A stretch of DNA of 64,000 nucleotides, taken from NCBI GenBank assembly GCA_934096735.1, contig CAKOMS010000003.1, forward strand, positions 7,298 through 71,297. The letters run 5' to 3'. This document shows positions 31,134 to 33,102 of this stretch, piece by piece. Both the position numbers and the translations under genes were made by a program. The notes beneath the pieces were generated by a model. That model did no database searches, had not been told where the DNA came from, and saw nothing but the letters and a program-made list of their open reading frames with translations. Source of the stretch: an uncultured Bacilli bacterium (GTDB lineage Bacteria; Bacillota_I; Bacilli_A; RF39; UBA660). Position 1 is the first letter of the stretch. Each line of letters opens with the position of its first letter.

Positions 31134-31209
31134 TTTAGTAGAAAATAAAAATAATAGAGAATGAACTCGGGAGGAATTTTTATGAGAGATATTTTCAAAA
31201 ACGACTTCC

Positions 31210-31219
31210 GGGGGGGGGG
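31210..31219 (+). repeat. G10 homopolymer (candidate slipped-strand phase-variation tract)
   Basis: Ten consecutive G counted directly, in a genome where G/C runs are otherwise absent. Confidence 0.9.
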
Positions 31220-31221
31220 TT

Positions 31222-33102
31222 GTGAAACTCCTTCTTGGAATAGAAATAATAACTTTATTTTTAGGGATTAAGAGTTTTGGTAATAAGAATAATACACTCG
31301 ATGACATTAAATTATTGGATAATAAATCTAATAATCTTTTTGCAATTATGGTTAAAGATTCTAGTGGTAATTATAGTGAAGCAAATGCTTTTCCAAAGGG
31401 TTCATACTTTTTAAATGAAACAATGTCATCATGCATAGATAATAATGGTAATAAAATAGATAATGTACTTAGTTATGAGAGTGGTCATGTTTATACAAAA
31501 ACAAACAAATCAGTTTATTGTTATTTGTATTTTGATAAAGACAATAGTGTATATGCAAAAGTAATAGATGATTATGAAAATAATAATGGAGTATTAAAAA
31601 CAACAGATGAGAATGGAAAAGATGTATATTACTATGCAGGTAATGTAACAAACAATAATTTAGTATTAAATAATTATTGTTGGAAGATGGTAAGAACGAC
31701 AGAAACAGATGGAGTAAAACTTTTGTATAATGGTGAATTAAAGCAAGTAATTGAAAATGAACCAATAACAAAAGATAAATATAATGTAACCACAAATACA
31801 CCAACAGGAACACCATTTACATTTGATGAGTCTACAAAGAAATGGACAAGTGGAATAGCAGGAGTAAAAAATGGTGAAAATATAATTGAGTTTACCGTAA
31901 CAGAAGCTGGTGACTATTTTTTAAATTATGAAATAAGTAGTGAAGAAAATTATGACAAAGGATCATTTTATAAGAATGGAATAGGACTAAAAGTAAATTT
32001 AAGTGGTTTATCTTCTGGAACAATAGAACTAAATGGACTAACAACAAGTGATGTAATAAAAGTAGTTTATAAAAAAGATAGCAGTGGGAATCGAAATGAT
32101 GATGTAGTAAGATTTTCAATAGGAAAACCAACTGGAAATGTTACCACAAATTGTAACAACGCAGGAACAGATGTATATATAGATTCAAATAGAACAAAAT
32201 ATAATACAAATGATAATTCACTGGCATATGTAGGATACATGTATGGAACTGTGTATGAATCGGCTGACAAAAATGCATCAGATTTTGGAACATATTATTA
32301 TGGAAGCGATGTAACATGGAATGGAACCACATATACATTAAGTGATGCAGAAAGTGGAGTAATCGCAGATATGTATAGTAAACTAAGTACAAAACATTAT
32401 ACATGTTTCAGTACAAGTACAAGTTGTTTGACAATTTATTATATATATTATATGAAAAGTGCAACGAGTACAGCATATTACATGACATTAACAAATGGTA
32501 AAAAAATAGAAGATGCTTTAGATGAGATGTTAAATTATAATACAACAAATAGTAATATAAAGACAGTAATAGATAATTGGTATAGTACAAATATGACAAA
32601 TGCAACAGGGTATTTAGAAAATGCAATATATTGTAATAATAGATACATAACAAATTTATCTGCAAGTGCATGGAATCCAAGTGGAGGAAGTTTAACAACA
32701 TATTTGCAATTTAACGATTATAATACAAATAATATAAGATTAACATGTCAAGATAAAGAAGATCAATTTACATTGAAAGTAGATAAAGGTGGAACATTAG
32801 GCTATGGAAATAATGCCTTAGATTATCCTGTAGGATTATTAACAAGTAAAGAATTTTATCTTGCTCGTTCTGGTTCAGATATTAATTACTTAAATAATAG
32901 TGATTATTACTGGTTGCTGTCCCCTTACGACTTCTACTTCGGCAGTGCTCGCGTCCGTAACGTGCACACTGGGAGTTTGCTCTACGACTTCAACAACACT
33001 ATCGGGGCCCGGCCTGCAGTTTCACTTTCAACAAAAGTTAAGTTAAGTGGAGAAGGAAATGGTACAGTTGAGTTACCATATATTTTGGCTCCTTTAGATT
33101 AA
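31222..33102 (+). CDS. paralogous membrane-anchored surface protein, copy 1 (main ORF; uncoupled from its ATG 31182 by a G10 tract)
   Basis: 626-codon ORF homologous to 53110..54630 and 62921..end (NYCWKMVRTTETDGVKLLYNG, YVGYMYGTVY, IKTVIDNWYSTNMTNA, YWLLSPY, RPAVSL). The RBS-preceded ATG at 31182 reads MRDIFKNDFRGGG and then stops at 31269..31271. With one G fewer it would fuse in frame. Confidence 0.75.
   Translation: MKLLLGIEIITLFLGIKSFGNKNNTLDDIKLLDNKSNNLFAIMVKDSSGNYSEANAFPKGSYFLNETMSSCIDNNGNKIDNVLSYESGHVYTKTNKSVYCYLYFDKDNSVYAKVIDDYENNNGVLKTTDENGKDVYYYAGNVTNNNLVLNNYCWKMVRTTETDGVKLLYNGELKQVIENEPITKDKYNVTTNTPTGTPFTFDESTKKWTSGIAGVKNGENIIEFTVTEAGDYFLNYEISSEENYDKGSFYKNGIGLKVNLSGLSSGTIELNGLTTSDVIKVVYKKDSSGNRNDDVVRFSIGKPTGNVTTNCNNAGTDVYIDSNRTKYNTNDNSLAYVGYMYGTVYESADKNASDFGTYYYGSDVTWNGTTYTLSDAESGVIADMYSKLSTKHYTCFSTSTSCLTIYYIYYMKSATSTAYYMTLTNGKKIEDALDEMLNYNTTNSNIKTVIDNWYSTNMTNATGYLENAIYCNNRYITNLSASAWNPSGGSLTTYLQFNDYNTNNIRLTCQDKEDQFTLKVDKGGTLGYGNNALDYPVGLLTSKEFYLARSGSDINYLNNSDYYWLLSPYDFYFGSARVRNVHTGSLLYDFNNTIGARPAVSLSTKVKLSGEGNGTVELPYILAPLD
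32911..33024 (+). other. adenine-depleted, GC-rich hypervariable block at the 3' end of copy 1 (DGR variable-region-like)
   Basis: Runs tggttgctgtccccttac...cggggcccggcctgcagtttca. My hand count gives about 56% G+C and about 17% A, against AT-rich flanks. Codon usage switches abruptly to tac/gac/ttc/ctg/cgc/cgg. Confidence 0.5.

Follow-up and report, generated by a model that had tools for sequence, protein, structure and literature searches.

A candidate poly-G translational switch at the 5' end of a paralogous family of putative surface proteins in an uncultured gut Bacillota lineage

Three paralogous genes with long G tracts near their start codons

The stretch of DNA analyzed here (the window) comprises 64,000 nucleotides (nt) of contig CAKOMS010000003.1 from an uncultured Bacilli bacterium, has a GC content of about 25%, and contains three members of one gene family; no others were recovered when the window was searched by tblastn with copy 2. 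This work concerns the 5' end of copy 1, where a run of ten G stands between an ATG start codon and the body of the gene. The body is a 626-codon open reading frame (ORF) that begins with GTG (31222..33102, plus strand) and lies in the +1 frame relative to the ATG at position 31182. A Shine-Dalgarno (SD) sequence, GGGAGG, can be read in the sequence 7 nt 5' of this ATG (31169-31174, plus strand). The ATG opens nine sense codons (MRDIFKNDF), followed by CGG and the G run (31210-31219, plus strand). The ten G shift the frame, which continues as ...GGGCETPSWNRNNNFIFRD and is ended by TAA at 31269-31271, leaving an out-of-frame stub of 29 codons, MRDIFKNDFRGGGCETPSWNRNNNFIFRD (31182..31271, plus strand). 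When one G is removed in silico, copy 1 reads MRDIFKNDFRGGVVKLLLGIE..., matching the MKKIDFRGGVVKLLLGIE... of copy 2, and the fusion of ATG 31182 to the body gives a protein of 639 amino acids (aa). A preliminary description of this DNA had named the SD and placed the ATG, the G10 tract and the TAA at exactly these bases, and the 626-codon frame, listed from 31222 with a GTG start, and its fusion after the loss of one G are likewise as described there.

Copy 2 (53110..54630, plus strand) encodes 506 aa in frame from its ATG, and database homologue P0001 is identical to it (100%). It has the SD GGAGG (53097-53101, plus strand) and a G9 tract (53129-53137, plus strand) in the context GACTTCC-Gn-TTGTGAAACTCC. 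Copy 3, which we add to the preliminary description, is split from its start codon by a G10 tract (62939-62948, plus strand) just as copy 1 is: the ATG at 62920 opens an out-of-frame stub that ends with TAA at 62998-63000 (62920..63000, plus strand), and the body runs from GTG 62951 past the end of the window (62951..64000, plus strand), corresponding to P0014, a protein of 493 aa counted from the GTG. The three long tracts occupy the homologous position in the three paralogues and have the context GACTTCC-Gn-TTGTGAAACTCCTTCTTGGAATAGAA in common. The first G follows the A of the ATG at a distance of 28 nt in copy 1 and of 19 nt in the other two copies, with identical phase. A tract of nine G is read as Arg-Gly-Gly-Val and links the charged N-terminus to the hydrophobic anchor (VVKLLLGIEIITLFLGI). 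With a tract located 19 or 28 nt after the ATG, a gain or loss of one G would alter expression.

Long G runs are otherwise missing from the window, which holds four runs of length 5, none of length 6 to 8, one of length 9 and two of length 10; the longest C run is 5. The 11 overlapping matches to the heptamer GGGGGGG all fall within the three tracts; 100 dinucleotide-preserving shuffles of the window gave an expectation of 0.36 matches and never more than 3. By the census and the shuffle expectation the tracts are therefore extreme outliers, and the earlier judgment that such a run is improbable by chance holds. Their lengths (G10, G9 and G10) exceed the background by far and lie in the range, from about 8 upward, of hypermutable G or C runs.

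Upstream of copy 1 lies a putative sigma-A-type promoter, TTGAAT-17 nt-TATCAT (31105..31133, plus strand). Its match to 9 of 12 consensus positions is by itself at chance level. We infer the assignment from the recurrence of the motif: TTGAAT-17-TATNNT/TAATAT is also found 5' of the other two copies and in relatives, and TTGAAT...TTTATAGTAT is conserved.

Tract length and reading frame in related genomes

A search with the copy 2 protein returned more than 1,000 homologues, all from metagenomes or metagenome-assembled genomes (MAGs). A pattern scan of metagenome contigs gave 45 loci, mostly chance matches, of which about 17, from assemblies OJAW01 and OLHG01, are genuine; a scan of genome contigs yielded no close strains, only rabbit "Bacilli" MAGs and "Tenericutes" UMGS1372, which are distant relatives, and it brought to light the promoter-type tracts described below.

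Orthologous loci of near-identical strains differ in tract length, and they do so in both directions. At locus A, located after rpe, a Hadza contig (L018) has G9 and a contig from sample ERZ27287225 (L017) has G10, the two being 99.0% identical over 7.5 kb. At locus B, a contig from another Hadza sample (L020) has G10 and its counterpart from ERZ27287225 (L021) has G9, with 99.3% identity over 7.5 kb. The gene neighbors are the same within each pair. Sample ERZ27287225 thus has locus A in the G10 (OFF) and locus B in the G9 (ON) configuration, and the contigs from the two different Hadza samples have the reverse. Tract length is therefore polymorphic at the same locus among close strains, the gene being otherwise intact, and the mixed states across loci imply that the tract would change in both directions.

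The locus of copy 1 itself was reached in relatives via the neighboring lysS. One orthologue (L084; 97.5% identical to the window over 13.5 kb) reads ATGAAAATTTTATTCAAAAATGACTTCC-G9-TTGTG and encodes an in-frame product of 637 aa. In another relative (L083, NCBI MAG GCA_964329735.1) the locus holds a different allele of the family with a G10 tract. Comparison of L083 (1742-3339) with the window (31100-33102) showed a 97.7%-identical flank, another paralogue type (493 aa, VLA variant) and other upstream genes, which suggests cassette replacement or recombination between paralogues.

Length and frame are strictly coupled. Among the 19 tracts that lie far enough from contig ends for the frame to be checked, all seven G9 tracts are in frame and all twelve G10 tracts are out of frame; six more tracts near contig edges are each 9 or 10 long. 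The same dichotomy is visible in the predicted proteins. Of 72 cluster representatives of the LLLGIE type, 62 are called from the codon just past the tract (MKLLL... or MLALLL...), seven read through from the upstream ATG (M[KE]K..[FL]RGGV...), and three (P0022, P0041 and P0057) have no tract and keep the long N-terminus. The full set of distinct proteins comprises 22 that read through, 90 that start past the tract and three without a tract. Clusters at 90% identity routinely mix long and short forms, and four long/short pairs (P0012/P0126, P0143/P0137, P0282/P0033 and P0283/P0049) have zero mismatches over 488 to 624 aa, the sole difference within each being an N-terminal extension of 10 residues. 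The preliminary description had proposed a slipped-strand phase-variation switch, to be examined by comparing the tract across strains and metagenomes. The comparison gave G9 in frame or G10 out of frame for every frame-checked tract, and the proposal gains support from the loci that differ in length at 99.0% and 99.3% identity, from L084 and from the four protein pairs.

Several observations bear on which start codon is real. All frame-checked loci have an SD and an ATG, the latter 19 or 28 nt ahead of the tract. The leader of L083 (ATGAAAAAAAATAGCTTCC) differs from the common leader (ATGAAAAAAATAGACTTCC) by a compensating gain and loss of one A that preserves the 19 nt. The tract of L072, which encodes P0022, is interrupted (G6-TGTGTGTG, that is G6TGTGTGTG), with total length and frame kept and MRDIFKNDFRG..VK in frame; it looks like a locked-ON allele. 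P0041 and P0057 keep the long N-terminus without any tract, and more distant homologues, whose coding region has no tract, begin with MKNK... or MKxK followed by a transmembrane segment. Because an SD and an ATG recur at one of two fixed distances from the tract, indels compensate each other and tract-less relatives keep the long N-terminus, the ATG is judged to be the real start. It is the ATG and not the GTG that is the ancestral start, and the ATG frame is evidently under selection.

The association of the family with poly-G extends to distant homologues, in which a G8 or G9 tract lies not in the coding region but between the -35 (TTGACA or TTGACT) and -10 (TATAAT) elements of the promoter. 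The arrangement is TTGACA-c-G9-ttgtta-TATAAT with a 16-nt spacer in L001 and L067 to L071, and TTGACT-cc-G8/9-tatta-TATAAT with a 15- to 16-nt spacer in rabbit-gut MAGs; such tracts were located at L001 2923-2950, L005 2919-2945, L007 2098-2124, L012 1421-1447, L004 4383-4410, and L067 1450-1477 and 3100-3127. The flanks of the promoter-type and the coding-region tracts are alike (GAC[A/T..]C-Gn-T[T]GT), by common descent or coincidence. By analogy with these relatives, an internal promoter across the coding-region tract was considered and rejected, as TAGACT is followed after 17 nt by AAACTC, which is no -10 box. A minus-strand promoter at 53116-53144 (TTCACA-17-TATTTT, its spacer holding the C9 complement of the copy 2 tract) was likewise discarded, its 9 of 12 matches being at chance level and there being no gene for it to drive.

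The leaders of the family have a further feature. A conserved hairpin, AAGTAAG...CTTACTT, lies directly 5' of the SD in copy 2 (53070-53096), copy 3 (62879-62905), L017 (2930-2953) and most other relatives, and not in copy 1; its z-score is -3.4 in the leader of copy 3 and -2.9 in L017.

A proposed translational switch and its alternatives

We hypothesize that copy 1 is a homopolymeric-tract contingency locus, a slipped-strand translational switch that is ON with G9 and OFF with G10, and that copy 1 is OFF in the genome sequenced here. From the sequence comparisons we consider this reading very probable. Each paralogue would have its own promoter, a strong SD, an ATG and 6 to 9 codons of a positively charged N-terminus, and the poly-G, read as Arg-Gly-Gly(-Val), would sit immediately before the transmembrane anchor. 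During replication, slipped-strand mispairing would add or remove one G. With nine G the ATG would be joined to the body and a type-II-anchored surface protein would be made. With ten, ribosomes coming from the ATG would stop after 26 to 29 codons and leave the body untranslated from that start, presumably with loss of the protein. Copies 1 and 3 would thus be OFF and copy 2 ON in the window. If each copy switches independently, a clonal population would display varied sets of related, divergent surface proteins, and this could serve as bet-hedging against antibody, phage or changing niches. We infer that the switch is reversible within a lineage and that the protein is exposed on the surface.

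Several points weigh against such a simple switch. G10 is the majority state. That a non-expressed state should be so common is odd, and it can be accommodated if OFF is either leaky or the favored state. The duplex predicted between the tract and the anti-SD sequence (a Firmicute-type anti-SD taken from general knowledge and not from the window) has -15 kcal/mol and is stronger than those predicted for the SDs of copy 1 (-10.5 kcal/mol) and copy 2 (-12.8 kcal/mol). Given this duplex and the GTG in the frame of the body that always follows the tract, a leaky OFF state is possible: since the tract pairs well with the anti-SD, some protein may arise via GTG 31222 or by +1 slippage on GGG-GGG. 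The preliminary description had entered the same caveat for GTG 31222, and it stands. Lengths other than 9 and 10, such as G8 or G11, are absent among about 25 tracts, and the promoter-type tracts of L067 to L071 (five samples of one species) do not vary, 10 of 10 being G9. Tract lengths were taken from assembled contigs, in which population heterogeneity and reversibility are not visible. Finally, a G9 tract at the copy 1 locus of L078, which is otherwise 99.95% identical to the window, is a weak call. The only mismatches of L078 to the window in 13.5 kb are six, all within 130 nt 3' of the tract and changing invariant residues, and the contig is unreliable near the tract.

What would a ribosome do at a G10 tract? 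One answer is that the tract serves as an SD for GTG 31222 and that the switch selects between protein isoforms, toggling long and short forms (the short form, MKLLLGIE..., being without the 13 N-terminal residues) or strong and weak expression. The predicted -15.0 kcal/mol, which exceeds the values for the SDs of copies 1 and 2, the GTG directly 3' of the tract, present whether the sequence is Gn-TTGTG or Gn-TG, and the status of G10 as the commonest state all speak for it. However, the duplex reaches the GTG, which makes for poor spacing unless pairing is confined to the 5' G's, and ribosomes that load at the upstream ATG with its strong SD pass over the GTG. The short form would have a single Lys ahead of its transmembrane segment, where every tract-less relative has several charges, and if translation normally began at the GTG, selection on the frame of the upstream ATG would serve no purpose. 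We regard the isoform switch as unlikely, though it deserves to be kept in mind. A different answer is recoding, in which G10 copies are expressed by +1 ribosomal frameshifting on GGG-GGG or by RNA polymerase slippage and the state of the DNA matters less. Slippage is known to occur at long homopolymers, few GGG codons are to be expected at 25% GC, and SD-like sequences, to which the tract belongs by its predicted pairing with the anti-SD, are known to stimulate frameshifting. Efficient recoding, however, would leave no reason for recurrent G9 alleles or for the strict dichotomy of 9 and 10, and we consider it improbable. Slightly less so, and still speculative, is a broader view that takes in the distant relatives: poly-G together with the short sequences around it (GAC(A/T)(T)C(C)-Gn-T(T)GT) might be a reusable module that acts transcriptionally as a -35/-10 spacer in those relatives and translationally, after a newly acquired SD and ATG, in the lineage of the window, where the tract might double as an SD for the GTG and so choose between the long anchored form, the short form and nothing.

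The remaining alternatives deny that there is a switch at all. The difference between G9 and G10 could be a sequencing or assembly artifact, the true length being constant and homopolymers being miscalled in short-read metagenome assemblies. Poly-G is indeed error-prone on Illumina instruments, the six mismatches of L078 are probable errors, and many contigs break at or in the tract. Yet the length at a given locus repeats across independent samples and contig naming styles (NODE_, k141_, scaffold): the G9 of copy 2 and the G10 of copy 3 recur in an independent contig (L016), G10 is found three times in L073 to L075 and twice in L076 and L077, and, within one assembly, loci with identical flanks differ in length. 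Because lengths repeat per locus and still differ between identical-flank loci, random and context-driven miscalling can be excluded as the main cause, and the artifact explanation as a whole is highly improbable. Contig ends at the tract fit length heterogeneity and a breaking of the assembly graph by the shared 5' sequence of the paralogues equally, and we draw nothing from them. Nor is it credible, except as a very slim chance, that the G10 copies are fixed pseudogenes without reversible switching, as the out-of-frame state of two of the three copies in the window and of most database copies might indicate. Bodies of 490 to 626 codons are intact and free of a second lesion in dozens of alleles, the sole lesion is always +1 in the tract, identical protein bodies are found in ON and OFF forms, and changes of state in either direction separate strains that are 99% identical.

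Independently of these alternatives, L078 is a reason for caution in using such contigs: its segment 1457-1590, equivalent to 31220-31350 of the window, is probably a degraded consensus past poly-G.

The protein, its neighborhood and known switches

At its N-terminus the body of copy 1 has a transmembrane anchor (KLLLGIEIITLFLGI); a presumably extracellular part contains conserved Cys residues, several of them invariant, and the C-terminal region is weakly DUF6273-like in structure. No Pfam family was found for copies 1 and 2 at an Expect value (E) of ≤0.01, NCBIfam gave none, a sequence-profile search of the PDB had no match, and an Rfam search of the family genes in the window was negative as well. 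The AlphaFold2 model of copy 2 (53110-54630; m19a529154e19, built with 40 homologues in the input) has a mean predicted local distance difference test score (pLDDT) of 85.7 and a predicted template modeling score (pTM) of 0.81; it consists of an N-terminal helix (residues 7 to 21), as expected of a signal anchor, and a body that is largely beta. A fold search of the PDB with this model gave no match (best E, 0.16). In the BFVD database the model weakly resembles viral and phage proteins annotated as DUF6273, the best E being 2.7e-7 but with a template modeling score of 0.21, and one local match covers 124 columns at a root mean square deviation of 4.0. With structural likeness this weak and no significant Pfam match, we do not assign the family to DUF6273. 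Other candidate classes were dismissed too. A Vlp-like lipoprotein would need a lipobox Cys, which copy 2 lacks, its first 60 residues being free of Cys; the N-terminus (RGG-VVKLLLGIE, with Glu nine residues past Gly-Gly and no F/M-T-L) is not that of a type IV pilin-like protein, whose G/FTLxE cleavage motif has Glu at +5; and the C-terminus, ...GEGNGTVELPYILAPLD, has no sorting signal of an LPXTG protein anchored by sortase. The family protein is presumably a type-II-anchored extracellular protein.

The genes downstream of copy 1 include one for a class B sortase (33186-34814, minus strand), which is extended at its N-terminus by about 320 aa. Beside it a 183-aa protein is encoded (34910-35461, plus strand), whose C-terminus (..NKQTGSTLPYIALGG..KKAKMYKI) gives weak matches to LPXTG/NPXTG anchor models and which is a putative small wall-anchored protein. 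A T-box leader (Rfam RF00230, 111 bits; 35531-35723) is located upstream of lysS (35758-37257). Three contigs from three different samples (L080 to L082) all start at the same base inside the class B sortase gene. In L072, downstream of the family member with the interrupted tract, positions 5369-7920 encode two proteins that may form a retron-type or another reverse transcriptase-based defense system, namely an RVT_1 reverse transcriptase of 505 aa and an AAA_15/OLD-TOPRIM-like ATPase. The window belongs to an uncultured gut lineage of spore-forming Bacillota and encodes SpoIVA at 51037-52515.

Campylobacter, Neisseria, Haemophilus and Helicobacter provide the textbook examples of poly-G contingency loci. 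The pilC1 and pilC2 genes of Neisseria gonorrhoeae have poly-G in the region coding for the signal peptide, where frameshifts switch a surface adhesin independently in the two paralogues (PMC13017665). The poly-G of the family described here likewise falls within the codons for the N-terminal export signal. Unlike pilC, which belongs to a Gram-negative pathogen and encodes an unrelated protein, this is a larger family, with at least three paralogues in the 64 kb of the window and five or more in related genomes, and occurs in an uncultured gut Firmicute. In Campylobacter jejuni, which is AT-rich, G or C runs of 8 to 11 are rare and concentrated in genes for surface structures, G9 and G10 are typical, and repeat number sets the rate of switching (PMC11868660; PMC6097035). 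We found the same combination of an AT-rich genome, rare outlier G runs and working lengths of G9 and G10; however, the C. jejuni tracts lie mostly inside glycosyltransferase and modification genes of various families, whereas here one paralogous family has them at one conserved 5' position. In Bifidobacterium breve, error-corrected sequencing revealed that replication slippage in an intragenic G tract turns a sortase-dependent pilus ON and OFF (PMC9187656). There, as here, a G tract would switch a surface structure of a gut commensal, in our case as deduced from sequence, but B. breve is a high-GC actinobacterium in which the switch affects pilus genes and no multigene family shares a switch module. 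The vlp genes of Mycoplasma hyorhinis, as well as maa2 of M. arthritidis and vmm of M. mycoides, have a homopolymer in the spacer between -35 and -10 (PMC2268961). Like vlp, the present genes form a multigene family of presumably variable surface proteins with one candidate switch per gene, and the distant relatives share the spacer layout; unlike vlp, the copies in the window have the tract within the coding sequence and do not encode lipoproteins, and the promoter-type loci sampled have no length variation. A non-exhaustive search of the literature found no description of poly-G contingency loci in uncultured gut Firmicutes, the only G-tract example from a gut commensal that we came across being that of Bifidobacterium (PMC9187656). 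The mechanism is known; what is new is the protein family and the host lineage.

The finding has practical consequences for the study of this lineage. Tract states can be read from metagenomic reads and provide a population marker, or "phasotype". Caution is needed with existing annotations, since gene callers start about 80% of the family genes at the GTG past the tract and assemblies often break there. The family also offers a confidently predicted fold without a solved relative. In summary, a lineage with 25% GC, present in Hadza and other gut metagenomes, keeps its only long G runs for one multi-copy family, and this family is probably a key host-facing or phage-facing surface determinant.

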